Assembly: GCA_905216195.1 (NCBI GenBank)
Contig: CAJMSX010000012.1
Span: 1,706 to 65,705 of the forward strand
Length of the DNA: 64,000 bases
Source: an uncultured bacterium
Lineage (GTDB): Bacteria; Bacteroidota; Bacteroidia; Bacteroidales; Marinifilaceae
Reading direction: 5' to 3'
Shown here: one piece after another, positions 16,504-60,717 of the stretch
Position numbering within the stretch: position 1 is the first letter of the stretch
How the letters are laid out: every line of letters starts with the position of its first letter
Program-made: the position numbers and the translations under genes
Notes under the pieces: model-generated
Seen by the model: only the letters and a program-made list of their open reading frames with translations
Databases searched by the model: none
Told to the model about the DNA's origin: nothing

Positions 16504-17385
16504 ATGGCAACTATGCGTGAATTGAAGCGGAGGATTAATTCGGTTCAGTCTTCCCAGAAAATTACCGGTGCGATGAAAATGATTTCTTCGGCCCGGTTTC
16601 GTAAGGCGGAAGCTGCGATGAATCACGCTTTGCCTTATGAAGAACAATTGCAGTCCATTTTGAGGCATGTGAATGAAAAGGATTGCGATTATGAATCTTC
16701 GCTCCGGCAGGAGCGGACGGTCCGGAACGCCGCCTTGGTGGTGCTGGGTACGGATGAGGGACTGTGTGGGGCGTTCAATATAAATATCTACAGGAAGTTT
16801 TTGGAAGCGGTAAATGAATATCATGCCGCTCAAGTGGAACCCGAGGTTTATCCCATCGGGAAAAAAATACTGGGGGACATCAGGCGGACCCGAGGCATTG
16901 CGGAAAAGAAGGTACCCGATGTTTTCGCCAACGGTCCGTACGCCGAAGCCGTACAAGTGCTGTCCGATGAATTGATCGCCCGTTTCCGGGAGGGAAAAAT
17001 CGACCGGGCGGAAGTGATCTATACCCATTTCAAAAGCCGGGGAACTCAGGTGGTAAAGCGTTTGCAATTGCTTCCCCTCAAACCCCGGGTTCCCGAAGAA
17101 CAAGCCGGGCCGGATTATACGGATAAGGTATTGATGTACATCTATGAGCCGGATTGCAAAGAGATATTTGAAATTCTTTACCCTTTAGTGATCCGTACGA
17201 TGTTTTACAAAGCCTTGCTGGAAAACCGGGCTTCGGAGCAGGCCGTGCGTATTCTTGCGATGCAGATGGCCAATGACAATGCCGTTAAGTTGCTGGGAAG
17301 TCTTCAACTGGAATACAACAAACTTCGTCAACAGGGCATTACGACCGAATTGCTGGATATGGCCGGCGGTCAGATAGAAGAATAA
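16504..17385 (+). CDS. atpG: F1 ATP synthase subunit gamma
   Basis: 293 aa. MATMRELKRRINSVQSSQKITGAMKMISSARFRKAE at the N-terminus and ITTELLDMAGG at the C-terminus. Confidence 0.93.
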   Translation: MATMRELKRRINSVQSSQKITGAMKMISSARFRKAEAAMNHALPYEEQLQSILRHVNEKDCDYESSLRQERTVRNAALVVLGTDEGLCGAFNINIYRKFLEAVNEYHAAQVEPEVYPIGKKILGDIRRTRGIAEKKVPDVFANGPYAEAVQVLSDELIARFREGKIDRAEVIYTHFKSRGTQVVKRLQLLPLKPRVPEEQAGPDYTDKVLMYIYEPDCKEIFEILYPLVIRTMFYKALLENRASEQAVRILAMQMANDNAVKLLGSLQLEYNKLRQQGITTELLDMAGGQIEE

Positions 17386-43706: not shown

Positions 43707-45125
43707 ATGTACGACGTCAAATCGAAAATCGCAGAAGAATTTATTGACGATGCAGAGATTTTATCGACCCTAGAGTATGCCCAGGCCAATAAAAATAATC
43801 GCCAACTGATCGAGAGTCTCATCGAAAGAGCCAGAGACTGCAAAGGGCTGACTCATCGGGAAGCGGCCCTCCTGCTGGAATGTGAGGATCCGGACCTGAT
43901 TGAAAGAATGTTTCAGGTGGCCCGGGAAATCAAGCAGAAATTTTACGGCAACCGTATTGTGATGTTTGCTCCCCTTTATTTGTCCAATTATTGTGTCAAC
44001 GGTTGTGTCTATTGTCCTTATCATGCTAAGAACAAAACCATTGCACGACGTAAGCTGTCCCAGGAAGAAATCCGGCAGGAAGTCATCGCTCTTCAGGATA
44101 TGGGACACAAGCGCCTGGCCATCGAGGTGGGGGAGCATCCTGTACTGAATCCCATAGAATACATTCTGGAAAGCATTGAGACGATCTATTCCATCAAGCA
44201 TAAGAACGGAGCCATCCGCCGGGTCAATGTCAATATTGCGGCCACGACGGTGGAAAATTACCGGAAACTCCACGAAGCTGGTATCGGTACCTATATTCTC
44301 TTTCAGGAAACTTACCATAAAAAAAATTATGAGGCATTGCATCCCAATGGCCCTAAAAGTAATTATGCCTACCATACCGAAGCCATGGATCGGGCGATGG
44401 AAGGCGGGATCGATGATGTCGGAATAGGAGTATTGTATGGTCTGAATACCTATCGGTATGATTTTGTGGGTTTGCTGATGCATGCCGAACATCTCGAAGC
44501 CGTGTTCGGAGTGGGACCGCATACCATCAGTGTACCCCGTCTGTGTAATGCGGACGATATCAGTACCGATGATTTTTCCAATACCGTTCCCGACGATATT
44601 TTCCAGAGAATCGTAGCGGTGATCCGGATCGCCGTTCCTTATACCGGAATGATCGTTTCCACCCGGGAATCCCAGGTTTCCCGGGAAAAGGTTCTGGATA
44701 TCGGAGTATCTCAAATCAGCGGGGGATCGCATACAAGTGTGGGCGGGTATGTAAATAAAGAGGAGTTCGACGAAACTACTTCTCAGTTCGATGTCTCCGA
44801 CCGCCGCACCCTGGATGAGGTTGTAGGCTGGTTGCTGGACCTCGGTTATATTCCCAGTTTCTGCACCGCCTGCTACCGGGAAGGACGTACCGGCGACCGG
44901 TTTATGACCCTGGTCAAATCGGGACAGATTGCCAATTGCTGTCAGCCCAATGCCTTGATGACCTTGAAAGAGTACCTGGAGGACTACGCTTCTCCCCAGA
45001 CCCGGGCAAAGGGGGAACGTATGATTGCAGCCGAAATGCTGCGCGTACCCAGTGAAAAAGTGAGAAGGATCGCCTTGAAAAATCTGGAAGAGATCGCCGG
45101 AGGGAAACGGGATTTTAGATTCTGA
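43707..45125 (+). CDS. hydG: [FeFe]-hydrogenase H-cluster radical SAM maturase HydG
   Basis: 472 aa. Radical SAM CVNGCVYCPY and a C-terminal CTAC-x21-CC auxiliary cluster motif (the CX2CX22C type that separates HydG from ThiH). Confidence 0.8.
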   Translation: MYDVKSKIAEEFIDDAEILSTLEYAQANKNNRQLIESLIERARDCKGLTHREAALLLECEDPDLIERMFQVAREIKQKFYGNRIVMFAPLYLSNYCVNGCVYCPYHAKNKTIARRKLSQEEIRQEVIALQDMGHKRLAIEVGEHPVLNPIEYILESIETIYSIKHKNGAIRRVNVNIAATTVENYRKLHEAGIGTYILFQETYHKKNYEALHPNGPKSNYAYHTEAMDRAMEGGIDDVGIGVLYGLNTYRYDFVGLLMHAEHLEAVFGVGPHTISVPRLCNADDISTDDFSNTVPDDIFQRIVAVIRIAVPYTGMIVSTRESQVSREKVLDIGVSQISGGSHTSVGGYVNKEEFDETTSQFDVSDRRTLDEVVGWLLDLGYIPSFCTACYREGRTGDRFMTLVKSGQIANCCQPNALMTLKEYLEDYASPQTRAKGERMIAAEMLRVPSEKVRRIALKNLEEIAGGKRDFRF

Positions 45126-45819
45126 TACGGTTGTGGAAAATGGTAATATAATAAGGCAACCTGGCCTATAGCTTTACGCCTCACCGGAGAGGCCGGCTTG
45201 CCCGGCCTTCTTCCCGCTTCTATTTTACGTTGAGGAGCATTCCGGCTTGTCTTTGCGGATGGGAGAGAGCCGGTGAGGTTGCTGTATCCCCCGGTTTCGG
45301 GAAGGTAAAATTTCTTTCCTGCCTTTCGGTTTAAGGTCTGTAGGCCGCGAGGGAGTTGCCCGTAAACTTTCTATTTTACTGTCAGGGAAAAGAATAAATT
45401 CCAAAGTGCCCATAGGATACCTGTCTTCCCAATCGAAGGTATATTCTTTCCGGGTCCAGGGATAAAAGTTCGTGATTGGTTGGCGGATGAACCTGGTCCG
45501 GATAGCAGTAGATAAACCGTTTATTTTCTTGTCGGTAGGGTGGTGGGGTAGGATGCTGTTTGTTATGTCGGTACACTAAGCCGGACGGAATAATTGGGCG
45601 GTAGAGACCTTAAAAATGACGATCGTGTCCTGCTGTTATTTCAGGATTTTCCTACTCTTTCCTGAGCTTTTCGGAATCCGCCCCGATGAATCATTCTTTT
45701 ACTACATAAGAAAGAGGGGAAAAACGGCGTGCCGGAGGGAGAAATGCGAAGAACTTTTTGGAAAAGGATGCCGTATACGGAGTAATTTGCATAAAATGTT
45801 AATCCTAAACAGAAACGTT

Positions 45820-46866
45820 ATGAATTACGGTATCAGTGTTTTATTTCGGGCTATTCCGGTGGTTATGGCATTTATTTGCTTTTTCCTGGGAGGCTTTATT
45901 TATTTATACGGGAACGATGCGGCCCGGGAGGTAGCCGGTCCTGTGGTATTTTTCCTGGGAGCCATTTGTCTGGCTTTGTTTGCTACAGCCGGTACGATCA
46001 TCCGGCAATTGATCCATACGTTCCGTCCGGTATTCAAGTATTTGTTGCCCGGCTTCGGTTATCTGGTGGCTTTTTGTACGATCGGACTGGGAATCTGGAT
46101 TTTTTCTCAGGACGTTAGCAACTTTATCGTATCCGGACACGTGGTATGTGGGGTTGGATTGATTGCCGCCTGTGTGTCGACAGCGGCTACTTCTTCTACG
46201 AAATTTTACCTGATTCCTCAAAATTCCCACGGAAACAGTACAGCCATCAATACGGCTGGGTTTTCGGCCGTTACCGAGAAGGTTTTGATCGGATTAACCG
46301 TTTTGTTTTCTCTGGTCGCCTGGATCTGGTGTATTGTTCTGCTTTCCCGAACCGGACAGGGAAGTGCCTATTTCGTTGCCGGTACGGTGATGGGAGGACT
46401 GGCTTCCATCTGTAGCAGCCTGATTGCCTTGGTCGCGAGTATTGCCCGGCAAATCCGGAACGATTATAGAGAAAAGGATCGTCATTTCTGGCCGAAGTGG
46501 GTGTTCTTTTTCGGTTTCCTCTGTATCGTATGGGGGTTGATCGTGATTTTTACCTTGGTGGGACATGCCGCGAATACGACCGGTTTTATCCTGATCGGGC
46601 TGGGGTTGGTTTGTTTCAGTATCTCCAGCAAGGTGCTGTTGCTGGCTAAAGTATGGCGACAGGAATACGCCCTGGCGAACCGTATTCCGTTGATTCCCGT
46701 CATTACCGCTCTGTTGTGCCTGTTTTTGGGCGCTTTTCTGTTCGAGGAAGGCATTCTGGATAATGCATTTTTTGTGCCCGCCCGGGTTTTGATCGGGTTA
46801 GGCGCGATTTGTTTCTGTCTTTTTTCGATCGTCAGTATTCTGGAAAGCGGTACATCGAAAAAATAG
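45820..46866 (+). CDS. polytopic membrane protein of unknown function
   Basis: About 348 aa from the ATG at 45820 (MNYGISVLF), almost entirely TM helices. The upstream 68 codons of the track ORF look non-coding. Confidence 0.55.
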   Translation: MNYGISVLFRAIPVVMAFICFFLGGFIYLYGNDAAREVAGPVVFFLGAICLALFATAGTIIRQLIHTFRPVFKYLLPGFGYLVAFCTIGLGIWIFSQDVSNFIVSGHVVCGVGLIAACVSTAATSSTKFYLIPQNSHGNSTAINTAGFSAVTEKVLIGLTVLFSLVAWIWCIVLLSRTGQGSAYFVAGTVMGGLASICSSLIALVASIARQIRNDYREKDRHFWPKWVFFFGFLCIVWGLIVIFTLVGHAANTTGFILIGLGLVCFSISSKVLLLAKVWRQEYALANRIPLIPVITALLCLFLGAFLFEEGILDNAFFVPARVLIGLGAICFCLFSIVSILESGTSKK

Positions 46867-46909
46867 AAGGACGGAAAATTTATTGTTTGCCTGTAAATCA
46901 GGTATGATA

Positions 46910-46945
46910 CACCGGAGCAGCACTCAGGGAAGGTCTGCTCCGGTG
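46910..46945 (+). terminator. intrinsic terminator
   Basis: caccggagcag-14 nt-ctgctccggtg, a perfect 11-bp stem followed by tagtttatttt. Confidence 0.65.
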
Positions 46946-47341
46946 TAGTTTATTTTGAAATGAAAAAAGTTTTGCTTCAGTAGAATCCCGTTCAATTGGT
47001 CTTTATATCCGGTTTACACTCTGCCGGCAGGAATTTTACCGCACCCAACATACGTGGAGGGAACGGTTTGATCAGTTTAGGGCGATACCGAGCGATGACA
47101 AGTTCGGAAAGAGGAGATGCCGGGGGGTGCAAGCACGGTTGGAAGCCCAGCCTACAAAGGGAGAGGAGGGCAAAGCTCCCCTTGTAATAAATAAAATCGG
47201 TTGTGGCGCCTTTTTAATGAGTAGGGAGGTTTTAAATTAGGGCAGTGTAATGGATGTGTAGATTAAAAAAGAGTGCTTAATAGTAAGATTTTAGCCTATT
47301 TTTATAAATAAAATCACATTAAAAAATGAAATAATGTATTA

Positions 47342-47349
47342 TAAATTTG
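47342..47349 (+). promoter_or_regulatory. candidate Bacteroidota -7 promoter box (TAAATTTG) upstream of the RiPP precursor
   Basis: Exact match to TAnnTTTG, 88 nt upstream of the ATG at 47437. No well-spaced -33 TTTG is visible. Confidence 0.3.
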
Positions 47350-47436
47350 TTTTTATTGAAAATTCTGCTTATTTTGTCGAAGTAATATAGCCGTAACAGC
47401 TTCTGGCTGATCTAAGACAACAAAAAATTTACTCGT

Positions 47437-47622
47437 ATGGAAAAAAAACTTTCAGACCTGATGCCTCATGCAGCATTAGACATCAGTGAGCTCTCAAACA
47501 TTAAAGGTGGTATGGAGAATCCCACAGAAATCAAACGAGTTTGCGATACCGGAGCGTGTAGCTCTAATCTCGACACTCTTGTACAGTATTGTACCGAATC
47601 CATTTGCAGAACCGGTGCTTAA
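47437..47622 (+). CDS. RiPP precursor peptide with double-glycine leader (Bacteroidetes GG-type) and four-Cys core
   Basis: 61 aa. Leader MEKKLSDLMPHAALDISELSNIKGG. Core contains CDTGAC and CTESIC. Lies 60 nt upstream of a radical SAM/SPASM gene. Confidence 0.7.
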   Translation: MEKKLSDLMPHAALDISELSNIKGGMENPTEIKRVCDTGACSSNLDTLVQYCTESICRTGA

Positions 47623-47682
47623 CCTTAAAGGACGCTTGCCACAAGTTGGAAAGGTTTGTGGCAAGCGTAGAAAAAGATAATT

Positions 47683-49149
47683 ATGCAGATTTGCTTTAAT
47701 CCTAATTATTATCTAAAGCATGATGGAGAACGGACCATTCTTGCGACAAATCCTTATGCTCAAGATCCTGACGTTAAGAAAGGATGGTTATCTAAAATAC
47801 ATCCTCTCTACGCAATGATGTTTTCAATTTTGTCTCAACCGAGTGAATTAGAAATAGCTATTCGAAAAATTGCTGATTTTTTCTCGGTTTCGATAAATGA
47901 AGCAGAACGTTTGCTCACCCCTTTCCTTTATGAGGAAGGAATTTTAGAAGCAAAATACCAAGATACTATCAGTTATTTTCCTCCACACATTGTATTGAAG
48001 GATATAGGAATAACGCATGGAGGTCTAGATTATAATCCTGCCCACTTTATATTTTCCAAAGTTGATCTTACAAGCCAACGAATGAAATTGGCTCCTCAGG
48101 GGATTGTTCTAATTATCAATAATCGCTGTGTGACTGATTGTATTTATTGTTATGCAGATAAAAAACAGAAGTGTAAAACGTCTTTCAGTTTAGCGACAAT
48201 TGAATCCCTGTTGGAAAACGCAAAAAGACTTGGGATTCGAGAATTACAGGTTATAGGCGGAGAGTTTTTTCTTTACCCTGATTGGGAAAGATTATTGGAA
48301 CTACTCGAAAAATATGAATTTTACCAATCTTTAATTTCTACAAAAGTACCACTAAGCAAAGCGCAAATAAACTATTTTAACCGATTTAACATAAGTTTAC
48401 AAATATCATTTGATGGTTTTGATAGTAATTTGGTTCAAAAAACATTAGGCGTTTCAGATGTTTATTTTGAGCGCATGAAAAGAACTATAAAGAATATAGA
48501 TTGTGCTTCTGTAAACTTTCAAGTAGCTACAGTGCTCACGAATCTAACAGCTACTATTGATAATTTAAACAATCTTCATTGTTTTTTGAAGGAGTTAAAG
48601 AATTTAAAACGTTGGGAAATTCGATTTGCTTTTCGATCGCTATATTCCGTTTCTAATTTTGATGAAATAAAGGTTTCGCCGGATTTTACAGAAATGCTTT
48701 CTCATTGGTATGAAGAAATTAGAAAATCCTCATCCGTGAATATTCTTCTTTCTCCGGCTAATGATATAAAATATTATTCAGCCCAAAATGGTTCTATTAG
48801 TTTTGAAGGGCCTCGCTGTTCTGCGAATACCACTCATATGGTTATTTTGCCCGATGGAAAAGTGACAATTTGTGAGCAACTTTATTGGAATCCGAGATTT
48901 ATTATTGGAGACATCTATAAGAATACAATAGAGGAAATATGGACGGGAAGAAGGGCACTTGAATTGGCATCTTGGCAACAATCAAAAGTTCAAAAGAATA
49001 GTCCATGTTCTTCTTGTGAATTGTTTGAGACCTGTTTAAATTATCCCAATAAATGTTTTGCAAACACTATCAAAGCTTATGGTGACGCTAATTGGGATTA
49101 TCCTGATCCTCGTTGCTCAAGGGCTCTTCCGTTCATCCATTCACTTTGA
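47683..49149 (+). CDS. radical SAM/SPASM-domain peptide maturase with N-terminal PqqD/RRE-like domain
   Basis: 488 aa. CVTDCIYC (CX3CX2C, nt 48127-48150) and a C-terminal SPASM-like region GPRCSAN..DGKVTIC..CSSCELFETCLNYPNKC. The N-terminal ~95 aa resemble a leader-recognition element. Confidence 0.8.
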   Translation: MQICFNPNYYLKHDGERTILATNPYAQDPDVKKGWLSKIHPLYAMMFSILSQPSELEIAIRKIADFFSVSINEAERLLTPFLYEEGILEAKYQDTISYFPPHIVLKDIGITHGGLDYNPAHFIFSKVDLTSQRMKLAPQGIVLIINNRCVTDCIYCYADKKQKCKTSFSLATIESLLENAKRLGIRELQVIGGEFFLYPDWERLLELLEKYEFYQSLISTKVPLSKAQINYFNRFNISLQISFDGFDSNLVQKTLGVSDVYFERMKRTIKNIDCASVNFQVATVLTNLTATIDNLNNLHCFLKELKNLKRWEIRFAFRSLYSVSNFDEIKVSPDFTEMLSHWYEEIRKSSSVNILLSPANDIKYYSAQNGSISFEGPRCSANTTHMVILPDGKVTICEQLYWNPRFIIGDIYKNTIEEIWTGRRALELASWQQSKVQKNSPCSSCELFETCLNYPNKCFANTIKAYGDANWDYPDPRCSRALPFIHSL

Positions 49150-49154
49150 TCGTT

Positions 49155-51497
49155 ATGAAGAAGGTTTTTTTATTTTTTGGTACATTTCTGTTTGCTTATA
49201 CTTCCCTGTTTGCATTTTCCACCAAAAGACTAACAGGAGTTGTGTTGGATAGTCTGTCAAAATCTCCAATTGAATTTGCCAATGTTTTAATTTTTAGTCA
49301 AGACTCTCTCTATATCGATGGATGCACGACTACTAAGAGCGGTTCTTTCGTTTTTGAGGATATTCCGAGATCCGGCGGATACCTCAAAGTATCCTTTATT
49401 GGATATGTCGATGCCATATATAGTCTGGACAGTTTAAGTACGGAGAAAAACAATATTCTCTATCTTCGCCCTTCGGATATATTCCTGGAAGAAATTACGG
49501 TATCGGCGAATAGGAAACCATTCCAGATCGAAGATGAGCGAATACTATTCAACCCCTCTTTTGTCGCTTATGCCGTAAATGCAAGCGATTTAATCAGGCA
49601 AGCCCCCGGTGTGATGGATACCGGTACATCGCTTGTTATGCCAGGGAAAAATGCGATTAAAATTTATATAAACAACAAGGAACAGAAAGGTTCACTGGAA
49701 GACATTCTGCTTCTTCTTAAATCTTATCCTGCGTCAGAGGTGGAGTCTATTGAAGTGATGATTAATCCATCCACACGATACACTATGGGCCAAAATGTCG
49801 GTGTGATCCATGTTAAACTGAAGAAAAAGCCAACGGATTATTTAGGCGGTAACGCCTCTTATTCTTTACTTCAAAACACTCAGCCGAGTAATGAAGGATC
49901 CTTAGGACTTTTTTATCAGGGGAAACGTTTTTCAACATCTTTAAACACTGCCGGTAATCTGAAGAAGTACGATCTTGAGGAACACCAGAGAGTTGGTTTT
50001 ACAGATTATACCCGAAATGCACTCACAGATATGACCCGCCATGCGAAGGACTTGGTGCTTCGATGGAATGTGAGTTATCAATTCAACGAGAATTGGAATG
50101 CGGGTTTGTCAGCTTACTACGCAACGGGAAAAATGAAACAGCGAACGGATCAACACTATTGTTATTATTTCCCTTCAGCAACAGAAGAACGAGAGCTTAT
50201 TACAGGCAAACGAACAGACCAAGCAAATACTTCTTTCGCCTCTTTTGACTTGGAAGGCAAATTATCCAAGACTACAAACTTGACGATTAATGTTGATTAT
50301 TACCATAAACATTCTCCTACTGAACGTAGTCTTTACGCTGTCCCTCTTGAGGAGCGGTTGATTTATTCTTTAGATGATATTACAAGCGATAATGTGACGG
50401 CTAAAGTCAATCTAAATCTTGTCTCAACTTCTAAACTCACTCTGAATTTTGGTGTAGACGGTATTTTTACCAATACCAGGAATTCTGAAACAGGCGTTTA
50501 TAGTGACGGACTTAGTGGTGAGGACGATTTCGAGTATCAGGAGAATGAAATAAATATTTATGGCGAAGCTCGTTATAAATTCAATTCAAAATGGATGTTA
50601 AGAGGAAGTCTGCGTTATCAGTCCATATGGACTGAAGCAGAAAATAAACTTGCTTCTGAAAATACGGATCATCATTATCAGGTATTTTGTCCTGCGGCTT
50701 TTCTTTCCTATCTGTTGAAAGAAAATCAGTCTCTTCAACTTGGCTTTTATTACAATATCAATAAGCCAACCCTTACTGCTCTTAATCCATCGAGGTTGTA
50801 TATCGGCAACGATACTTACCGTGTAGGTAATCCTGAATTGGAACACTCTACCCATTACGTTGTCAGCCTTAGCTATTCCTTAGGAAGCCTGATGATACAA
50901 CCTTATATAGAGTGGCTTGACAACGGGATTACTGAAATCTCCAGGATTGAAGATAATAAATATCAAGTGATGACTTGGGAAAATGCTGTGGATCGTCGTA
51001 ATCTGGGATTAATGATTTTTTGGGCCTATTCCAAACCTAAATGGATGCGGGCTTCACTTACGGCATTCTTAACTAATCCTGTGACCACTTCAGATCATCC
51101 GCTTTTACATGCAAGAGTGAGTTCTTTTAAGTTCTCTCTAAGTCCGAATTTACAATTCTATTTGGAGAATGACCGTAAATGGATTCTCGCTGTGTATGGA
51201 AATTATACCAGTCGGGAACATACGGTTGATCTGAAACTGGAATCCATGTGGCGACTGAATGCCAGTTTAACATGGAAGGCAAGCAAACAATGGACCTTGT
51301 CTGCAAGCGGCTTGAATTTATTACGCTCTCATACTCGGGGAATTCAGTATATCGGAGAATCTACCATGAAATTTAATAATAAATATATGTATACCGGATT
51401 TCAATTCTCAGCCAGTTTCACCTGGGGTAAATCTATGCGGCAATCCCGAGACAGAGCCGTCCTTCGGAATATGAACATGCGTACCGAACTCGATTGA
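49155..51497 (+). CDS. outer-membrane beta-barrel protein (CarboxypepD_reg-like N-domain plus TonB-receptor-like/OMP_b-brl_3 barrel)
   Basis: About 780 aa from the ATG at 49155 (MKKVFLFFGTFLFAYTSLFA signal). The domain TGVVLDSLSKSPIEFANVLIF..GSFVFEDIP is followed by a long stretch of alternating beta-strand pattern. The start is 5 nt after the rSAM stop. Confidence 0.7.
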   Translation: MKKVFLFFGTFLFAYTSLFAFSTKRLTGVVLDSLSKSPIEFANVLIFSQDSLYIDGCTTTKSGSFVFEDIPRSGGYLKVSFIGYVDAIYSLDSLSTEKNNILYLRPSDIFLEEITVSANRKPFQIEDERILFNPSFVAYAVNASDLIRQAPGVMDTGTSLVMPGKNAIKIYINNKEQKGSLEDILLLLKSYPASEVESIEVMINPSTRYTMGQNVGVIHVKLKKKPTDYLGGNASYSLLQNTQPSNEGSLGLFYQGKRFSTSLNTAGNLKKYDLEEHQRVGFTDYTRNALTDMTRHAKDLVLRWNVSYQFNENWNAGLSAYYATGKMKQRTDQHYCYYFPSATEERELITGKRTDQANTSFASFDLEGKLSKTTNLTINVDYYHKHSPTERSLYAVPLEERLIYSLDDITSDNVTAKVNLNLVSTSKLTLNFGVDGIFTNTRNSETGVYSDGLSGEDDFEYQENEINIYGEARYKFNSKWMLRGSLRYQSIWTEAENKLASENTDHHYQVFCPAAFLSYLLKENQSLQLGFYYNINKPTLTALNPSRLYIGNDTYRVGNPELEHSTHYVVSLSYSLGSLMIQPYIEWLDNGITEISRIEDNKYQVMTWENAVDRRNLGLMIFWAYSKPKWMRASLTAFLTNPVTTSDHPLLHARVSSFKFSLSPNLQFYLENDRKWILAVYGNYTSREHTVDLKLESMWRLNASLTWKASKQWTLSASGLNLLRSHTRGIQYIGESTMKFNNKYMYTGFQFSASFTWGKSMRQSRDRAVLRNMNMRTELD

Positions 51498-51665
51498 TTT
51501 ACCTGAAAATGGAACGGATGGCTTTTAGTTGTTTGAACAACAAGCTATAGGTCTCAAAAAGACATATCTAAATGGCCCCTTTACCCCCTCTCTTGGCAGC
51601 TTAATTAATTTGCATAGGTGTATTAATTTTAAAGGTAAAAATAGCATATTTTTAGGGAGCCTTTG

Positions 51666-51673
51666 TATATTTG
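51666..51673 (+). promoter_or_regulatory. candidate -7 promoter box (TATATTTG)
   Basis: Exact TAnnTTTG match, 45 nt upstream of the lipoprotein ATG at 51718. Confidence 0.3.
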
Positions 51674-51717
51674 TTTGCAGAAAACCGATTCACTATAGAA
51701 TCCTAAATCGAAGCTGT

Positions 51718-52449
51718 ATGCAAACAAAAAATTTATTCGGAATACTCCTGTTACTCCTTTGCTGTGTGGGTTTGATCAGCTGTGATAAGGAGCACGACGA
51801 CGGGTCGCGGGGATTTATGCAGGAAGCCACAATTATAGGTGATTCGATAAATGGTTACTATTGTTATTTAGACGGCGGCGGATTGGCTATTTCTCATGAC
51901 CCCTGGCTAGAGGGCATAGAAAGAGGATATTTCGCTTTCCATTATATGGAAGAAAATAAGGGCGTGAATGCTAATCAGGAATGGTATATTCAGCCTGCAC
52001 ACGTCTTGCCTTATTCCATATATCCGGTGGTTCACCCGATCAACATAGCAGAAGCAGAATCTAAACACCTTACGGACAAAGATAGTTGTCAAATCCCTTC
52101 ACTTTTTTCATTGGAATACGGCTACCGCGGTTATTTTGACTTCAATACAGGGTTATCCGTTACCAACTTAGCCCATGGAGAAAAAGTCCCTATCCAACTG
52201 AATATGGTATATGATGCGGAGAAACAGACTTCCGATACTTTGCTGTTGCAGCTTTGTTACCATGCGCACGTCCCGGAAACATGGACCCACCCGAGTGTTG
52301 ATTACGGCAGAGTGTCCTGCGATATTTCTTCCCTGGCTACCCTTCGGTCGTGGAGCGATTCGGTGACTATTGTGATAGAGACAGGGGACAAAATGAAACA
52401 TCTGACAAAAATCAGTAAAACGGATTTTTTTAAGCCTGTCAGAGAATAG
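51718..52449 (+). CDS. lipoprotein of unknown function (possibly NigD-like)
   Basis: 243 aa from the ATG at 51718. Lipobox LLCCVGLISC followed by DKEHDD. The segment EATIIGDSINGYYCYLDGGGLAISHD recalls NigD-like lipoproteins, but this family call is weak. Confidence 0.55.
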   Translation: MQTKNLFGILLLLLCCVGLISCDKEHDDGSRGFMQEATIIGDSINGYYCYLDGGGLAISHDPWLEGIERGYFAFHYMEENKGVNANQEWYIQPAHVLPYSIYPVVHPINIAEAESKHLTDKDSCQIPSLFSLEYGYRGYFDFNTGLSVTNLAHGEKVPIQLNMVYDAEKQTSDTLLLQLCYHAHVPETWTHPSVDYGRVSCDISSLATLRSWSDSVTIVIETGDKMKHLTKISKTDFFKPVRE

Positions 52450-52638
52450 AATTTTTCCGTAACCTGAAATCGGGGACTTGCCCGCAAAGACCTTTTTGCA
52501 GCTTACCAGAAATCAAAATCTGCTCGCCGAGATTTGGAAAATTTAAAGGAGGGAGGAAGTAGAGCTGATGATAAGCCGGTTTTCCTGTGTGTTTATACTT
52601 CACGGATTACGTAAAAGAGCGGGAAAACTATAACTTCA

Positions 52639-52647
52639 CCCCCCCCC
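52639..52647. repeat. homopolymeric C9 tract
   Basis: Nine consecutive C read directly from the sequence, in the intergenic region after the lipoprotein gene. Confidence 0.95.
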
Positions 52648-53082
52648 ATTCTCTGTCTGCCCGGTAGATTTCTAAAGGGGGCAGTTAAGGTTTCCGGTCA
52701 GGCCTGATACGCTGTTCAAATAAATTGACTTTGCATTCGGTTGGCACTATCTTTGACGAGGATAAGAAATTTTGACATATCTGTCTGAATGACAGCGTAG
52801 AATAGTGAGAAAGAAAGTTGTTAGTAACGATTTAGCGACAATGTAACTACGTTGAATTGCTGCACTTTGCAACTCGTCAAACAACTCTATGCAAATATAC
52901 ATCAAAAATCGAATATGGCAAAACTCCTGTATATTATAATCCATTTCTTTCTTCTTTCCCAAAAAAAAGTATAGCCGTATCGACGCTTCCCGCTTCACAG
53001 AATCGGACTTTATTTGGTGATAGATTCCAATAATCGAATATTCTCCTTTGTAGGGCACGGAAGCAGTATATCTTTGGTAATG

Positions 53083-53113
53083 TTTGACTTTTAACGGTAT
53101 ATAGTTAACTTTG
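53083..53113 (+). promoter_or_regulatory. candidate Bacteroidota promoter (TTTG-N19-TAACTTTG)
   Basis: TTTG at 53083-53086, a 19-nt spacer, then TAACTTTG at 53106-53113. This matches the TTTG/TAnnTTTG consensus spacing, directly upstream of the 53130/53178 ORF. Confidence 0.45.
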
Positions 53114-53177
53114 TAGAAAATATAGTATTGTGTCTAAAGATTTAGGATTATGTGATTCAGCAGTAAATGGCAACAAA

Positions 53178-54029
53178 ATGGAAGAAAAAGTTAACATATT
53201 GATATCCAATTTACAGCAACTGATTAAACAGTTGAATCAATTAGGACTAACTAAATTATCTGATTCTATTTCTCTCGCTTGTAATTGTCTCAAATCACAC
53301 GATTTAATCGGGTTAGATATCATATTAGTCTCTTTTAGTAATAGCAATATACAAAGAGAGATAAATAATTGCAAAATTTATAATATGGTAGTGCGTGCAA
53401 TAGAACTTACAAAAGACATCCAAGAAGATTTTAATAACGATATTACACCATTAACCAAAGCAGAGGAATTATTTCTTCATATTAGCTATAATAAGTTTTT
53501 TGATATTAGTGAAGAAATTTATTCACCAGAATTTTGGAGGCAATCTCCCCAATACAGATTTAGTAAAATCTCGCAAGCATTCAGTATTTATGGAGAGATT
53601 TTAACCTATGAACCGATTCAGGGTGTTCTAAATTGGATGTCTAAATATCGTCCTCCTATGGAATCTGAGATTTCAGGCCCGTTGTTTAAATTTATTCGTA
53701 ATATACTTGCTCACTTTCCATTTTATGATTCGTGGGATGATATATGGATAAGTAGAGATTTAGTTAATTGGAGGACTCAGGGGCAAAGCATAGATAAGTT
53801 TCTAAAAAAATACTCTGGATTACCTGCGATAAAATATCGTTTCAAAGAAAATACAAAGCCAAGTTTCACTTTTATAACAATATCTTTCCCTGAAAAATAT
53901 GATTCAGAAAAAATATACTTGAAAGACATAATAAAGGAAGAAGAAGGTGTGAAATTTGCACTTGTTATGATGCGTAAAGTCCTTAATACACAAATAGAAT
54001 CTATGACAGAAACAACAACGACACATTAG
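53178..54029 (+). CDS. hypothetical protein with R-x4-H (HEPN-like) motif
   Basis: 283 aa from the ATG at 53178 (299 aa from the GTG at 53130). Predicted mostly helical. Contains FKFIRNILAHFPF, i.e. R-N-x-x-A-H (codons 53697-53714). Very AT-rich. Confidence 0.5.
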   Translation: MEEKVNILISNLQQLIKQLNQLGLTKLSDSISLACNCLKSHDLIGLDIILVSFSNSNIQREINNCKIYNMVVRAIELTKDIQEDFNNDITPLTKAEELFLHISYNKFFDISEEIYSPEFWRQSPQYRFSKISQAFSIYGEILTYEPIQGVLNWMSKYRPPMESEISGPLFKFIRNILAHFPFYDSWDDIWISRDLVNWRTQGQSIDKFLKKYSGLPAIKYRFKENTKPSFTFITISFPEKYDSEKIYLKDIIKEEEGVKFALVMMRKVLNTQIESMTETTTTH

Positions 54030-54824: not shown

Positions 54825-55958
54825 TCACTCGAAGACCTTGAGCAACGCCCGTTTGTCCTCCTCCTTTTTGACACGCAGGTAGTTGCGGTAGTTTCCGAAT
54901 CCGGCCATCAACACCAGCTCCATGTTGCTTTTGTCGCTGTACCGGGGCGCAAGACGCAGACGGTCGAGTTCCTGCAAGCGGCAGCGGTTTATCAGGCGGC
55001 TGAAATTCATGCTGTATTCGCGGTTGATAAAGGCCGAGAGGTAATTGCGGTTGGTGTTCAGCCCGGCGGCGAGGTCGGTGATGCGGAGTCGGGGATTGAT
55101 ATAGGGCTTCTTCTCGCACAGGTAACGCTCGAACTGCTTGCGGTCGAGGGCGGAGTCCTTCTGCGTCGTATCTTCCTCTTTCCCGTCGGCGGGTTCGGGC
55201 TGGATGATCAGGTAATTGCCGTCGAGCATGTTGTAGCATAAAATAATGTATAAGACGGAATAGGGCAAAGCCCCCAACCAGACGAACCACAAGGAGGAGA
55301 AGGTGTCGATGCCCAGCAAGATGCCGGCAAGGGGGACGGGGATGCAGACAAAGATCAAAAGCTGGATGCCGAAAAGCCAGTCGAGCGAAGTGCGCTGAGC
55401 CTCGGAAGAGTAATCTACGACGAAACGCCTGTATCGACGGATGTTGCGCAGGCTGAGCAGCGGATAAAGCGTATTGTAGACGATGAAGATGATACTCGTG
55501 AGTATATAGACAATGCCGAACCACGCATCGGAGGTAAGGCTGGCGCTCTCGTAAACCACGGCCATCTGTTTCTCAGCGGGAACAAAGAGGTCGCATCCGG
55601 CTGAAAATGCTGTGATAGCTAACGGGATAGCAACATGCAGGCGGTTGAGCCTGCGTGACCCGCTGGTGTCCGTCAGCAGGGCTACAAAGTGATAGAACAT
55701 CACCTGGTCGAGCATCAGGGCCAGCAGAAAGACCGTGTGGTAATGGACAAATCCATCGGGGCTTACCGCATAGAGTACCATCCCGAACCACCCCAGCGCG
55801 GTAACCAGATAGATGACGGCCAGATACAACCTGAGCCGCCTCTCCTGCACATTCCGTTGGCAGGTGCGGGCGTCCATGAGCATCATAAGCATACAGCCTA
55901 CGGCGCATACGACGGGTGTGGAGAACGCGAACGCTTCCACTTGTTCATGCGCGATCAT
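54825..55958 (-). CDS. membrane-anchored AraC-type HTH transcriptional regulator
   Basis: 377 aa. An N-terminal multi-TM domain of about 240 aa and a C-terminal HTH region ITDLAAGLNTNRNYLSAFINREYSMNFSRLINRCRLQEL...MAGFGNYRNY. Confidence 0.7.
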   Translation of the reverse strand: MIAHEQVEAFAFSTPVVCAVGCMLMMLMDARTCQRNVQERRLRLYLAVIYLVTALGWFGMVLYAVSPDGFVHYHTVFLLALMLDQVMFYHFVALLTDTSGSRRLNRLHVAIPLAITAFSAGCDLFVPAEKQMAVVYESASLTSDAWFGIVYILTSIIFIVYNTLYPLLSLRNIRRYRRFVVDYSSEAQRTSLDWLFGIQLLIFVCIPVPLAGILLGIDTFSSLWFVWLGALPYSVLYIILCYNMLDGNYLIIQPEPADGKEEDTTQKDSALDRKQFERYLCEKKPYINPRLRITDLAAGLNTNRNYLSAFINREYSMNFSRLINRCRLQELDRLRLAPRYSDKSNMELVLMAGFGNYRNYLRVKKEEDKRALLKVFE

Positions 55959-57190
55959 GGTGTACCTCCTTTCTTCCTGCCGGATTCTTTTTCCTCCGCC
56001 TCTGCTGCCGCTTCCCGTTCGGCGGCGATAGCCCTCAAATAGGTGCGGTAATTGTCGAATCCCGCCTTTTCGACCAGCGAACGCATGCTTTTACCGCGAT
56101 TGGAGGGCAGCGCACGCAGGCGGTCGAGTTCGCGGAGCCGCCAGCGGTTCAGATAGCGGTTGAAATTCATGCCGTAGGTGCGGTTGATAAAACTCGACAG
56201 CGCGGTGCGGTTCACATCGAACACCTCGACCAGATCGGCGATTTTGCACGCCGGATCGAGCCACGGCTTTTCATGGCGGAAATAAGCCTCCAAACGAACG
56301 CGGCTCAATTTGCCGCTGTGATGCCTGCGCAGGGGTTTGGATTCCGGGCTATCGGTGGCTTCCGGTTGCATTTGCGGTGCAGCCGCTATTATTGGAACCG
56401 CACCTTGCCGGGCGTCGTTGTCGGGCAAGACATACAGCCGATACTTGCGGCGGATGATGTGGTACGAGAGCAAGACGTGCTGAAAGGCCATCGCCCCGGC
56501 AGCGAGGATCGTCCAAAACGAATGCAGGATCGTTGCGCGGGGCATAAACGTAGGCAACAGCGACGAGAGCAGCGAGGCGATGGAGATACCCACCAGAAAC
56601 ACCACCCACCGGGCGGTTTGCCGTCCGGGGGCTTGTTTCCCGTTTGTGCGGTGATAGTAACGTACCAGCAAGGCAATCGTCAGTATATAATAGGCCATTC
56701 CGAAAATCATGCGCAAAAGAGGCTTGAGGGTAAAGAAACGCGCGAACGCTTCGTACCCTGCGGGAAAGACCTGCGCCTTGCCCTCGACGATCCCGATCTG
56801 CACATCCATCGGCACGAACAGCGACCAGACGAACAGCACCCCCGCAAGCAGTCCCGGCAATAGGTAGTGCTGCGGCGAAAACCGTTCCGCCTCTCCCAGA
56901 CGGGTAAGGTAGCGGACGATGCGGTAGAAAAAGATCGAGGGCAGCACGTAAGAGAGCAGGCACAGCACGTTGAGCCATGTAAAGAGCACCGGATGAAATT
57001 CGTAGCAGAATGTCATATACCAGCCCAAAGCGGAGAGCGCAAGATAGACCAGCATGATCTTTTTCAGGCGGCGTTCCTCCTGCGAGAGGCAGTCGCGCAG
57101 GGAGAGGGCCACCAACGCCGAGCAGGTGATGGCCGAAAAAACAGGGATAAGAACTGTAATACCGACTTTATAGGCTGCTAAAATATCCAT
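55955..57190 (-). CDS. membrane-anchored AraC-type HTH transcriptional regulator, paralog
   Basis: 411 aa with the same architecture (IADLVEVFDVNRTALSSFINRTYGMNFNRYLNRWRLREL...KAGFDNYRTY). Its stop overlaps the downstream start as ATGA (55955-55958). Confidence 0.7.
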   Translation of the reverse strand: MDILAAYKVGITVLIPVFSAITCSALVALSLRDCLSQEERRLKKIMLVYLALSALGWYMTFCYEFHPVLFTWLNVLCLLSYVLPSIFFYRIVRYLTRLGEAERFSPQHYLLPGLLAGVLFVWSLFVPMDVQIGIVEGKAQVFPAGYEAFARFFTLKPLLRMIFGMAYYILTIALLVRYYHRTNGKQAPGRQTARWVVFLVGISIASLLSSLLPTFMPRATILHSFWTILAAGAMAFQHVLLSYHIIRRKYRLYVLPDNDARQGAVPIIAAAPQMQPEATDSPESKPLRRHHSGKLSRVRLEAYFRHEKPWLDPACKIADLVEVFDVNRTALSSFINRTYGMNFNRYLNRWRLRELDRLRALPSNRGKSMRSLVEKAGFDNYRTYLRAIAAEREAAAEAEEKESGRKKGGTP

Positions 57191-57609: not shown

Positions 57610-57654
57610 CAATCAGTCCGCAAAGAGCTATAACTCCTTTTTGCGGACTGATTG
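57610..57654 (+). terminator. 15-bp perfect hairpin (attenuator/terminator-like) in the pilus operon leader
   Basis: caatcagtccgcaaa-15 nt loop-tttgcggactgattg followed by tttgtt. Lies 41 nt after the AC repeat and 108 nt before the ATG. Confidence 0.5.
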
Positions 57655-57762
57655 TTTGTTATCCCTGCCCCAAACCGGAGAGGGATGCGGCCACGAACAT
57701 ACCGCGTCGAATACAATCCCAATCATAGAATCAATAATTATATATCACTTAATAACCCGATT

Positions 57763-58845
57763 ATGAGCAAAATGATCAAAACACTACTTACCCTTGTGCT
57801 GGCGGTATCTGTTTGTGCAGCGTCCTACGGGCAGGCCGCCCGCCCTGCAGCAGAGGAAAAAACAGCGACTTTCGTATTCCTTCCGGGAAATGACATGTTT
57901 CTGCTGAAAGGCAATGAAACGGAGCTGGAGCGGCTCTACGCTTTGGTGGAGGAATACCGCACGGAGATCGCCGCAGGCGCAATGCCTGTGTATGTGGACG
58001 GCTATTGCGCCTCGCTGCCGACCTCGAAAGAGAACCTGACGACGGCTTTCGTACGCGCCAACCGCGTCAAGTCGGAGTTGATCCTCTCGAAAGGGCTGAC
58101 GGAGGCGGATTTCATTACGAATAACTACGCACACGCGTACCTTAATAATAAGGACATGGTGGTGGTTACGCTCCGCATTCCGGCAAAGGAGGAGCCGCGC
58201 CAACCGGAACCAGTGCGGGAGGAACCCCGACCGCAGGAGCCGCAGGTAAAGGCGCAGCCCGAACCCGAACCGCAACCTGCGCAGGAGCCGGTTGCAGAGG
58301 TCGCGCCCGAACCTGCCGTGCCCGCCAAGCCCTATTGCTTTGCAGTGCGGACGAATGTGCTTTACGATGCGCTGCTGCTGCCCACGCTCGGCGTGGAGTG
58401 GCGCATAAACCGCGATCTGGGCATCAAGCTCGACGGCAGCCTCTCGTGGTGGGGCAATGAAAAAGAGAAGGTGCAAAAGATGTGGGTGCTTAACCCGGAG
58501 GTGCGGTGGTATCTGCTCCGTGACAAACGGTTCTACGTCGGGGCTGCGGGTAGTTATGGACAGTACAATATATATAAGTACCCAATCGGCAGTATCGTAT
58601 CGAAAGACACGGGCTATCAGGGCTCGATGTGGAACGCAGGCGTGACGGTCGGTTACCAGCTCTACCCCTCGCGCTGCTTCTCGGTCGATTTCAACCTCGG
58701 TCTGGGCTACACGCGCTTCGATTACGACACGTTCGGCATCACCGACGGCGTGCGGGTGTACAAGGAGCGCGACCGAACGAAGAACTTCTGGGGGCCGACG
58801 CAGGCGGGAATATCGCTTGTCTGGACTATCGGAGGTAACAAGTAG
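57763..58845 (+). CDS. DUF3868-like / Pro-rich linker / DUF3575 outer-membrane protein (first gene of type V pilus loci)
   Basis: About 360 aa from the ATG at 57763. Signal MSKMIKTLLTLVLAVSVCAASYGQ, the linker EEPRQPEPVREEPRPQEPQVKAQPEPEPQPAQEP, and a C-terminal VRTNVLYDALLLPTLGVEWRI...NPEVRWYL beta-barrel pattern typical of DUF3575. Confidence 0.65.
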   Translation: MSKMIKTLLTLVLAVSVCAASYGQAARPAAEEKTATFVFLPGNDMFLLKGNETELERLYALVEEYRTEIAAGAMPVYVDGYCASLPTSKENLTTAFVRANRVKSELILSKGLTEADFITNNYAHAYLNNKDMVVVTLRIPAKEEPRQPEPVREEPRPQEPQVKAQPEPEPQPAQEPVAEVAPEPAVPAKPYCFAVRTNVLYDALLLPTLGVEWRINRDLGIKLDGSLSWWGNEKEKVQKMWVLNPEVRWYLLRDKRFYVGAAGSYGQYNIYKYPIGSIVSKDTGYQGSMWNAGVTVGYQLYPSRCFSVDFNLGLGYTRFDYDTFGITDGVRVYKERDRTKNFWGPTQAGISLVWTIGGNK

Positions 58846-58866
58846 AACAAATATAAAAACAGGAAT

Positions 58867-59736
58867 ATGAAAAGAGTTATAAAACTACAACTTGTCGGGG
58901 CAGTGGCGATAGCTACGCTTCTTGCTGCCTGCGACGTGAAAGACCCCATTTACAACACTCCGCACCCGGAGCACGGTAAAATCACGCTGACTACCGAGTG
59001 GGACGGAATCGGTGAGGGACTGCAAGCCCCCGACAGCTATACGGTCTGCATCGGCGACTATACGACCAACGTGAGCGGCTCGACCAACACGCTCGACCAC
59101 CTTTTCGCGCCGGGAACCTACCGCATGCTCATTTACAACACGCCCGAAAATATCAGCTTCGACGGGACGGTGGCGGATGCGATGAACGGTGACACGCATG
59201 ATCCCGGCTGGCTCTTCTCCTACTCCGCAGAGGTGACGATTTCAAAAGATACCGATCACGCCTTTACGGCTGTGATGAAGCAACAGTTGCGGGAATTGAC
59301 GCTGGTGATCGAACCCACGGGCGACGCCGCCGACCGGATAGAAAGCATCAAGGGCTATTTGAATGCGATAGCCGGTAAGTTCGACATGGAAAACGAGACT
59401 TACTTATTTCCAATAATGTTAATGTTTGATTTCTCGAAGATTGCCGACGGGCCCGATGCCGGGAAATGGAGTTCCACCATACGGACGTTAGGCTTCATGC
59501 CGGAAGAATCTAAAGGGCTGAGTCTCAAAATCCACTACAAAGACGGCAATCCCGAAATGCAAATCGTAACAAGCGATCTTACGGAGGCTTTGGCGGGATT
59601 CAACGACGACAAGCGCACGCCCCTGACGCTGGGCGGATCGGTGGTGGATACGCCTACCGGAGCCGGGTTCGGAGCAATCATTGACGACTGGACGGCAGGC
59701 AACGGCGACGGCGAAGATATAGACGCGAATATGTAA
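58867..59736 (+). CDS. FimB/Mfa2-like fimbrial anchor lipoprotein
   Basis: 289 aa. Lipobox ATLLAAC. Size, position and the IESIKGYLNAIAGKFDMEN segment resemble Mfa2-family anchors. Confidence 0.5.
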   Translation: MKRVIKLQLVGAVAIATLLAACDVKDPIYNTPHPEHGKITLTTEWDGIGEGLQAPDSYTVCIGDYTTNVSGSTNTLDHLFAPGTYRMLIYNTPENISFDGTVADAMNGDTHDPGWLFSYSAEVTISKDTDHAFTAVMKQQLRELTLVIEPTGDAADRIESIKGYLNAIAGKFDMENETYLFPIMLMFDFSKIADGPDAGKWSSTIRTLGFMPEESKGLSLKIHYKDGNPEMQIVTSDLTEALAGFNDDKRTPLTLGGSVVDTPTGAGFGAIIDDWTAGNGDGEDIDANM

Positions 59737-59769
59737 CAATCGATCATATAATAATTAAATACAAGCAAA

Positions 59770-60705
59770 ATGATGAAATCAGTAACTCCAATCCGCCTGT
59801 CCGCCATCCTGATGGCGACGGCTTTCCTCTTTGCAGGATGTGAAAAAGAGAACGAAAACACAGTAGATAACCAGCCCGTAAAGGCGCGTATCACCTCCGT
59901 CATCGACGGCATGGCCACACGCGCCTCGGGCACGGCATGGGCGCCGGGCGACCGCATCGGCATCACCGCAAAGAAAGCGGACGGCACAGTGCTCTTCACC
60001 AACATGCCCTACGTCACCACAGAGGGCGACGGTGTGTTCACCCCCGAAGGCGAAGCCTTCTATTTTCAGGATAAAGACGAAGTGACTTTTACCGCCTATT
60101 ATCCTTTCACCGAAAGCAGCTACATGGCAGACGACCGCTGGATAATGTTTCTAACAGGCGGATTGGAAAGCCAGAAGCCCGAAAACCAACCGAAGTATGA
60201 CGTCCTGTTTGCCACCACCACGGGCAGCTCCTCCAGCCCCGACCTGCAACTGCGCTTCTGCCATTGCATGAGCCGCTTCGTGCTCCGCTTCCTGCCGGGC
60301 ACCGGTGTCGCTTCGCTCGACGACATCACCTACGAGCTTAGTGGGATAATAACGGGCGGCATATTCAACACCCTGACCGGAGAAACCATCGTCAATGAAA
60401 CCTCAGTAAGCGTGGGCCTCACCGTCCCCGGCAGCAACGCCTCCGAACTGACCTCCCCGCTCATCCTCTTCCCCCAACAGAGCGAGGACGATAAAACGCT
60501 CACGCTCACTATGCGGGGCAAGACCTACACCGCTACGTTCAAGTTTAAGGAAAACCCGAACAACGGGAACGTGCGCGAACTGGCGGCAGGGCACACCTAT
60601 ACCTATAATGTAAAGATAAACAATACGTCGATGACCATCACTCCCGCCACCATCTCTAATTGGGAAGAGGGTGGCAGCGAGAATATCGACAGTACCAACA
60701 ATTAA
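59770..60705 (+). CDS. fimbrillin-family (Mfa-like) pilin lipoprotein
   Basis: 311 aa. Lipobox FLFAGC, then ...GMATRASGTAWAPGDRIGI, which is the Arg processing-site context and GD.IG block typical of Bacteroidales fimbrillin-like proteins. Confidence 0.6.
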   Translation: MMKSVTPIRLSAILMATAFLFAGCEKENENTVDNQPVKARITSVIDGMATRASGTAWAPGDRIGITAKKADGTVLFTNMPYVTTEGDGVFTPEGEAFYFQDKDEVTFTAYYPFTESSYMADDRWIMFLTGGLESQKPENQPKYDVLFATTTGSSSSPDLQLRFCHCMSRFVLRFLPGTGVASLDDITYELSGIITGGIFNTLTGETIVNETSVSVGLTVPGSNASELTSPLILFPQQSEDDKTLTLTMRGKTYTATFKFKENPNNGNVRELAAGHTYTYNVKINNTSMTITPATISNWEEGGSENIDSTNN

Positions 60706-60717
60706 ACACGATCCGTT

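Follow-up and report, generated by a model that had tools for sequence, protein, structure and literature searches.

Radical S-adenosylmethionine (SAM) peptide clusters are numerous in gut Bacteroidales, and the product is known for almost none of them. Another candidate lies in contig CAJMSX010000012.1 of an uncultured bacterium of the family Marinifilaceae, within a stretch of 64,000 nt that we call the window. What does the radical SAM protein encoded by the open reading frame (ORF) at 47683–49149 act on, and what does it make? An original prediction, drawn from the sequence, had described it as a single-enzyme maturase of a peptide made on ribosomes and modified after translation (RiPP). 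Judged from sequence relationships and gene context, the protein is very probably a leader-dependent RiPP maturase acting on the 61-residue peptide encoded next to it. The best overall explanation, which we consider likely though by a modest measure, is that such a maturase most probably installs Cys-derived thioether cross-links on this precursor.

A radical SAM enzyme with a seven-cysteine SPASM domain

By its domains the protein belongs to the radical SAM superfamily, and it carries a SPASM domain. Pfam Radical_SAM (PF04055) matched at 51.0 bits (cut-off 29.5; E = 2.4e-13) and Pfam SPASM (PF13186) at 45.6 bits (cut-off 21.5; E = 8.7e-12), and NCBIfam TIGR04085, also a SPASM model, scored 44.2 bits (cut-off 27). 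The CX3CX2C motif that had been read at residues 149–156 is indeed there, with each of its Cys placed (Table 1). Toward the C terminus the order of Cys is C379-x12-G392-x4-C397 ... C442-x2-C445-x5-C451-x6-C458 ... C478. All seven Cys of the reference motif, CX9-15GX4C ... CX2CX5CX3C ... C, are thus present, with spacing CX2CX5CX6C in the central part. The final CX6C, which had been remarked on as unusual for a SPASM-type Cys-rich C terminus, is no local aberration: it is retained in 22/22 homologues of the displayed alignment. The domain is predicted to bind two [4Fe-4S] auxiliary clusters.

More than 900 relatives were retrieved from 5.8 billion proteins; among the best 120, nearly all are 480–500 aa long and cover the full query. 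In an alignment of 96 sequences (39–73% identity), nine of these ten Cys never vary, and the tenth, C379, is conserved to at least 90%. The exact sequence has no database record, and a 99%-identical protein (P0001) served for conspecific comparison.

Structure prediction agrees with these assignments. The full-length AlphaFold model has a predicted local distance difference test score (pLDDT) of 94 and a predicted template-modelling score (pTM) of 0.91, and its alternation of strands and helices is consistent with the partial TIM barrel of radical SAM enzymes. Its closest Foldseek neighbours in the PDB are, best first, SuiB, SkfB, PqqE, CteB and TigE; these five are radical SAM enzymes that modify peptides and carry an RRE (RiPP recognition element), and an anaerobic sulfatase maturase and viperins rank below them.

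Table 1. Features of the maturase locus, in window coordinates (RRE, RiPP recognition element)
Feature	Position	Strand	Evidence or remark
Candidate -7 promoter element of Bacteroidetes type, TAAATTTG (matches TAnnTTTG)	47342..47349	+	Regular-expression match
Gene for the 61-aa precursor peptide; leader MEKKLSDLMPHAALDISELSNIKGG, core MENPTEIKRVCDTGACSSNLDTLVQYCTESICRTGA (C-x4-C-x10-C-x4-C)	47437..47622	+	ORF, orthologues
Perfect 16-bp stem-loop between precursor stop and maturase start, no U-tract	47633..47667	+	Folding against shuffles
Radical SAM/SPASM peptide maturase (predicted), 488 aa, ATG to stop inclusive	47683..49149	+	ORF, Pfam and NCBIfam matches, AlphaFold
RRE-like winged-helix domain, about residues 1–101, then linker to about residue 135	47683..47985	+	AlphaFold models, Foldseek
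CX3CX2C motif (CVTDCIYC; C149, C153, C156), predicted to bind the SAM-cleaving [4Fe-4S] cluster	48127..48150	+	In 96/96 homologues
SPASM domain, seven Cys	48817..49116	+	PF13186 (residues 379–446), TIGR04085 (residues 379–478)
TonB-dependent-receptor-like outer-membrane protein, 780 aa, signal peptide	49155..51497	+	CarboxypepD_reg, TonB_dep_Rec_b-barrel, OMP_b-brl_3
Lipoprotein, 243 aa, lipobox LISC	51718..52449	+	Weak NigD1/NigD2 match (E 0.002; 17.9 bits, cut-off 60)

A divergent RRE-like domain at the N terminus

The N-terminal part of the protein had been read as a leader-recognition element of the PqqD type. The models support an RRE-like fold for it. Predicted elements are strands at residues 2–5, 9–13, 18–22 and 36–39, helices at 41–49, 56–67 and 71–83, and a hairpin at 88–99, and a separate AlphaFold model of residues 1–135 (pLDDT 91) likewise has strands, three helices and a beta-hairpin. 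When this domain alone was compared with the PDB by Foldseek, the top of the list was made up of MibB, TbiB1, TbtB, MccB, MadB, ThcOx and PqqD. Nearly all of the top matches are leader-binding domains, among them the RRE of a lantibiotic dehydratase (MibB) and a leader-bound lasso-peptide RRE (TbiB1). The match to TbiB1 extends over 79 columns with a root-mean-square deviation of 2.8 Å and a target-normalised TM-score of 0.62; the range for TbiB1 and PqqD is 0.57–0.62. From these modelled likenesses we infer that the domain binds a leader peptide.

A sequence profile of the domain found just 271 cluster representatives among 1.84 billion proteins, and no match among PDB sequences at E<=10. In all 150 of the listed profile hits the domain is N-terminal, and the full-length ones are ~490 aa long. 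This narrow distribution, always N-terminal where listed, marks the domain as a divergent RRE specific to a family of ~490-aa maturases.

The adjacent gene encodes a conserved precursor peptide

The peptide with two C-x4-C motifs that had been proposed as the substrate is encoded directly upstream of the maturase, with a gap of 60 nt from its stop to the maturase start. Its leader is of the double-glycine (GG) type, ending in ...LDISELSNIKGG. It is the sole credible ORF with a GG leader and a Cys-containing core in the window; a second pattern match, at 16814–16975, was judged a chance occurrence without checking. The peptide matched nothing in NCBIfam or Pfam at E<=10, TIGR04149 and PF14406 included.

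Five public orthologues of the precursor keep the pattern R-[VA]-CDT[GA]ACSS-x-[LI]-x-x-L-x-x-[YH]-C-x-x-[SA]-[IV]-CRTGA-stop, and the 8–11 residues following GG are variable. Comparison with the orthologue at locus L084, which adjoins a 65%-identical maturase, gave 24 identical codons, 17 with synonymous changes only and 20 with non-synonymous changes over 61 aligned codons. Because so many changes are synonymous while the core is kept, the precursor is under real coding constraint.

A variant of the window precursor from another metagenome (P0301, 85 aa) is normal as far as ...YCKESI, beyond which the sequence departs from it. This variant, to all appearances a copy with a frameshift or truncation, hints at decay of the cluster in some strains.

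The maturase–precursor pair recurs across Bacteroidota

For comparison, one genome per species was scanned for relatives of the maturase. This gave 206 relatives, and 80 loci, nearly all from Bacteroidota, were kept. A strict rule was used to call precursors: a small ORF on the same strand, at most 1.5 kb upstream of the maturase, with a Cys-free leader ending in hydrophobic-x-GG and a core holding two or more Cys. Such an ORF lies upstream of the maturase in 47 of the 74 loci with enough upstream sequence, where ~0.007 would be expected per 1.5 kb; on the opposite strand just four were found over 816 kb. A looser listing of precursors gives more upstream ORFs than the strict rule. The peptide context seen in the window therefore recurs.

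Further genes accompany the pair. Of 81 loci, counting that of the window, 47 have a homologue of the outer-membrane protein (OMP) encoded after the maturase, and its gene often follows the maturase immediately. An ATP-binding cassette exporter with a C39 peptidase domain (PCAT) occurs in 50 of the 80 related loci; HlyD-like proteins are encoded in 28 and TPR/LuxR-type regulators in 18. Next to the homologues with 73% and 65% identity, maturase, OMP and PCAT stand in tandem. When the neighbouring ORFs were clustered, precursor(s), maturase and OMP emerged as a cassette that runs through the family. The single-enzyme arrangement thus stands in so far as the maturase is the sole modifying enzyme beside the precursor; the conserved system is larger, adding the OMP and, in relatives, PCAT. 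Five loci (L019, L031, L032, L037 and L043) have tandem maturase paralogues, each behind its own, differently patterned Cys-rich precursor.

To place the family among curated ones, we ran the NCBIfam models over the window maturase (best 25 matches, all 55 bits or less), over six related maturases and over five precursors. No equivalog reached its cut-off for any of them. For the window maturase PqqE (TIGR02109) scored 55.4 bits against a cut-off of 381, and the protein also fails membership of MftC. TIGR04148 and TIGR04150 had been suggested as candidate families, and the maturase belongs to neither: TIGR04150 scored 33.5 bits (cut-off 250), with no second radical SAM-like (pseudo-radical SAM) gene in the operon, and TIGR04148 was outside the best 25 matches for the window maturase and for each related maturase scanned. 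Among the precursors, one from a related locus of Parabacteroides distasonis was borderline for TIGR04149 (24.8 bits; cut-off 25).

A protein- or cofactor-directed radical SAM/SPASM enzyme, of the anaerobic sulfatase maturase or heme/NirJ type, beside a small ORF that is there by coincidence, would account for the sub-threshold matches to the anaerobic sulfatase maturase (TIGR03942; 37 bits, cut-off 349), NirJ2 (44 bits) and AhbC (35 bits). These three scores are 8- to 18-fold under their cut-offs, no sulfatase or heme-pathway genes lie nearby, and the modelled N-terminal domain is RRE-like. Moreover, the linkage to a precursor is found again and again in Bacteroidota, in operons that also encode a PCAT exporter. 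We give this account hardly any credence; the maturase does not fall in a sulfatase-maturase or cofactor clade devoid of peptide context, the outcome that would have spoken against the original prediction.

Paired cysteines and the probable chemistry

What, then, would the maturase do to its peptide? In the nearest clade (40–49% identity) the spacing of core Cys is conserved as [4, 8-11, 4-6]. More distant clades have cores with CGLGC, C-x3-C repeats, CxCC and similar patterns, and closely spaced Cys pairs are the only core feature common to all clades. Aromatic residues are not conserved. Five residues after the second Cys (C2+5), the close clade usually has Asp or Glu, with Thr in one orthologue; we take this acidic or Thr residue to recall the Cys-Asp/Glu/Thr motifs of ranthionines.

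Three considerations favor the formation of Cys-derived thioether bridges: nothing in the cores but the paired Cys is conserved from clade to clade; the Cys of the SPASM domain number seven rather than eight, which by analogy with CteB would leave auxiliary cluster I open for a substrate thiolate; and the residues at C2+5 resemble ranthionine acceptors. Taken by itself, and argued as it is from analogy, this chemistry seems to us evenly poised between right and wrong.

The reaction may proceed as follows. The fused RRE-like domain would dock the GG-type leader of the 61-aa precursor. The cluster bound by CX3CX2C would cleave SAM to give a 5'-deoxyadenosyl radical, and this would abstract hydrogen from the core of the precursor. 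Substrate ligation and electron removal could fall to the two auxiliary clusters of SPASM, with apparently just three protein Cys (C379, C397 and C458) left for auxiliary cluster I, if CteB is a guide. On the C-x4-C-x10-C-x4-C core, the expected products are intramolecular thioether bridges like those of sactionines or ranthionines.

The same enzyme could instead carry out a different reaction on the adjacent peptide, such as a C–C or C–O cross-link, an epimerization or another change begun by hydrogen abstraction, with the four Cys used for disulfides or metal binding in the mature peptide. Its best structural neighbour, SuiB, is a C–C cross-linking enzyme; its best matches among hidden Markov models (HMMs), to PqqE, a GDL-motif maturase, MftC and DynA, include no thioether-forming enzyme; and a TonB-receptor-like partner would suit a metal-binding product. 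The chemistry of radical SAM/SPASM enzymes is, besides, diverse (review PMC10114670). Yet the restriction of conservation to closely spaced Cys pairs suggests that the enzyme acts on Cys, the SPASM Cys number seven and not eight, and the aromatic residues that are the usual partners in C–C and C–O cross-links vary among the cores. On this evidence we regard a non-thioether modification as rather unlikely.

Several other observations weigh against a leader-dependent, thioether-forming maturase. The label PqqD did not carry over from the original prediction along with the fold: residues 1–140 have no match to the PqqD HMM (PF05402) or to any other Pfam model at E<=10, and the Foldseek E-values of the N-terminal domain are weak (0.016–0.4), so the RRE assignment rests on predicted structure. 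SuiB forms a Lys-Trp C–C bond and no thioether. No curated thioether-maturase model claims the protein. PapB (NF047865) scored 35.8 bits against a cut-off of 340, and AlbA (NF012164), SkfB (TIGR04403), StsB (NF045574) and SCIFF (TIGR03974) were outside the best 25 matches for the window maturase. Its relatives scored 24–54 bits against the three sactisynthase models AlbA, SkfB and StsB (cut-offs 300–850), and for SCIFF a relative reached 18.6 bits (cut-off 425). The open site on auxiliary cluster I is our assumption from the Cys count and the CteB structure. In the full-text literature we found no experimentally characterised homologue, only in-silico surveys. Finally, no PCAT or HlyD gene that would account for leader removal and export was found anywhere in the window.

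A bolder proposal is that the C-x4-C pairs receive a novel cross-link and that the product, rather than a bacteriocin of the usual sort, is a secreted, Cys-derived metal-binding or signalling peptide, re-imported via the co-transcribed OMP. We think this quite improbable; if true, it would establish a new RiPP class in gut Bacteroidales.

The outer-membrane protein and the low-GC island

The OMP gene starts 6 nt past the maturase stop (a 5-nt gap). The Plug domain is marginal in the window OMP (E 0.14) and was found in 8 of 36 OMP homologues (best E 2e-6); the OMP sequence had no match among PDB sequences. Going by its sequence, the maturase-linked OMP family is TonB-receptor-like and not TolC-like. 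Candidate roles are export channel, re-uptake and immunity.

Beyond the OMP lies the gene for a 243-aa lipoprotein, in the slot that the PCAT exporter takes in close relatives. It was called in four conspecific contigs, but it is absent next to all 80 related maturase loci and has no Pfam family, and its place in the maturase system is doubtful. ORF 53130–54029 was considered as a further member and rejected. Both genes were excluded from the system because neither has a Pfam family or is conserved beside related maturases.

The exporter was sought by tblastn of the window with representatives of PCAT, HlyD-like proteins and TPR regulators. The sole match was an ABC ATPase at 1176–1817, which is generic. 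In relatives, the C39 peptidase of the exporter would cut the leader at GG and export the peptide; here, this function would have to come from elsewhere.

The whole RiPP operon sits inside a low-GC island (~47200–54000), whose GC content of 0.36–0.40 compares with about 0.47 on either side. Four conspecific metagenome contigs have the identical precursor and hairpin and the same order of genes. One of these (L087) has different genes beyond the 243-aa lipoprotein, and the related locus L084 has a gene fragment with a DUF6444 domain (weak Pfam match) upstream of the precursor. DUF6444 is an N-terminal domain of IS66-type transposases. The low GC, the downstream variation in L087 and the DUF6444 fragment in L084 together suggest horizontal acquisition.

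Could the cluster be an orphaned or decaying remnant, acquired on a low-GC island, that has lost its exporter and releases no mature peptide? Much about the surroundings fits such a history: in the nearest relatives, at 73% and 65% identity, the OMP is followed straight away by a C39 PCAT; an unrelated lipoprotein fills this slot in the window and in the four conspecific contigs; no PCAT or HlyD gene lies within 64 kb; the island departs from its flanks in GC; downstream sequence differs between strains; and a frameshifted precursor copy exists in another metagenome. The genes themselves fit it poorly. Precursor, maturase and OMP are full-length with every invariant residue, and they are intact in five independent assemblies, the window and the four conspecific contigs. 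Bacteroidales GG-leader clusters without a PCAT of their own have been described, so that a PCAT could act in trans (PMC10352776), and our search for the exporter covered 64 kb of the genome. We consider a remnant improbable, though with no exporter found within 64 kb the cluster may not be functional here.

Other genes flank the island. Upstream are a gene for HydG, the [FeFe]-hydrogenase maturase (43707–45125, + strand; TIGR03955, 922 bits), which is a second, unrelated radical SAM gene and shares a 90%-identity cluster with a Culturomica HydG, so that the host is probably one of the Odoribacteraceae, and a gene for a DUF2776 membrane protein (45616–46866, + strand; 528 bits), whose mechanically called ORF has 416 aa, as against 348 aa, from a later start, on conspecific contigs. 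Downstream are two AraC-like (HTH_18) genes on the minus strand (54825–57190) and then a DUF3575 gene with Mfa-type fimbrillin genes (57652–62340), a minor-fimbriae locus unrelated to the maturase. No tRNA genes were found in the window.

A recurrent hairpin and other candidate regulatory signals

The spacer between precursor and maturase contains a stable hairpin, with a minimum free energy of -24.7 kcal/mol (z -4.4); none of 200 shuffles was equally stable. To see whether relatives share it, we folded 48 such spacers from related loci along with that of the window, 49 in all. A comparable hairpin following the precursor (z < -2) is present in 35 of the 49 (median z -4.1), and it recurs without sequence conservation. 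Probably the hairpin is a partial terminator or an mRNA-stabilising element that gives an excess of precursor transcript; it would in this way set a high ratio of precursor to enzyme transcripts.

The candidate -7 element lies upstream of the precursor, ~88 nt from its ATG. It is one of seven matches to the pattern within the 6.8-kb island, and its identity as a promoter element is a weak inference. Scans for sigma-70 promoters and for intrinsic terminators gave no enrichment over shuffles and missed the hairpin, which has no U-tract. Rfam had no match at gathering score across the window and none at E<=1 in 46850–47700. A GC-rich patch of ~200 nt (46985–47215) separates the DUF2776 gene from the AT-rich island; it has no Rfam match, and its fold is no more stable than those of shuffles (z -0.42).

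Significance and comparison with known systems

These data delimit a coherent maturase family that, clustered at 50% identity, comprises about 270 clusters. The family is marked by a divergent RRE overlooked by the PqqD model, a CX2CX5CX6C SPASM domain, cores with paired Cys and a TonB-receptor-like partner. Because the precursor is a short, well-defined peptide whose conserved core has ~27 residues, enzyme and precursor form a tractable pair from which to learn the chemistry of the family and whether the OMP serves in export, import or protection. The maturase overturns no existing view; it is a sound genome-mining lead, not an exceptional one.

The closest structural parallel is the streptide maturase SuiB/StrB (PDB 5V1Q-5V1T), whose three parts come in the same order, an N-terminal RRE, then a radical SAM barrel, then a SPASM domain, which in SuiB holds two auxiliary clusters. 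Foldseek ranks it first (E 4e-18; TM about 0.6–0.67) over ~507 aligned columns that include its RRE, and it is the only PDB sequence match that spans residues 94–469 of the maturase. The two proteins share 16% identity. Whereas SuiB modifies a Cys-free core, in streptococci and under quorum-sensing control, the family described here has Cys-based cores and a GG leader, and belongs to Bacteroidales.

A second parallel is with the thioether maturases, both those of the ranthipeptide type (CteB/SCIFF, PapB and QhpD) and those of the sactipeptide type (AlbA, SkfB and StsB). They too act on Cys-rich cores and have a seven-Cys SPASM or twitch domain, with an N-terminal RRE in CteB, AlbA and SkfB, and the window maturase has SkfB and CteB high among its neighbours both in structure and in sequence. 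They differ in having CX3C where the maturase has CX2CX5CX6C; and here the operon is Gram-negative and includes a TonB-receptor-like OMP. For re-uptake of a peptide via such an OMP, as proposed above, the methanobactin/MbnT arrangement offers an analogue.

Two systems of Bacteroidales resemble the locus in their organization. The GG-Bacteroidales system (TIGR04148/TIGR04149/TIGR04150) has in common with it the Bacteroidales hosts, a GG leader, a Cys-containing core and a radical SAM/SPASM maturase. It has a pseudo-radical SAM partner, however, for which there is no counterpart here, and the window precursor does not match TIGR04149. The second is a group of RiPP clusters with radical SAM enzymes only, described for Bacteroidales in an in-silico survey that covers neither chemistry nor enzyme-family definition and exemplified by BGC2 of Phocaeicola vulgatus (PMC10352776). 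The window cluster lacks the PCAT, membrane fusion protein (MFP) and regulator of BGC2-type clusters, and the BGC2 enzyme is at most a candidate member of the maturase family. In many related loci, though, the inventory is that of BGC2: a TPR regulator, PCAT, MFP, a GG-leader precursor, a single radical SAM enzyme and an OMP (PMC10352776). The maturase family in gut Bacteroidales is uncurated; its arrangement of an RRE–radical SAM–SPASM enzyme with a GG-leader precursor is already well known.

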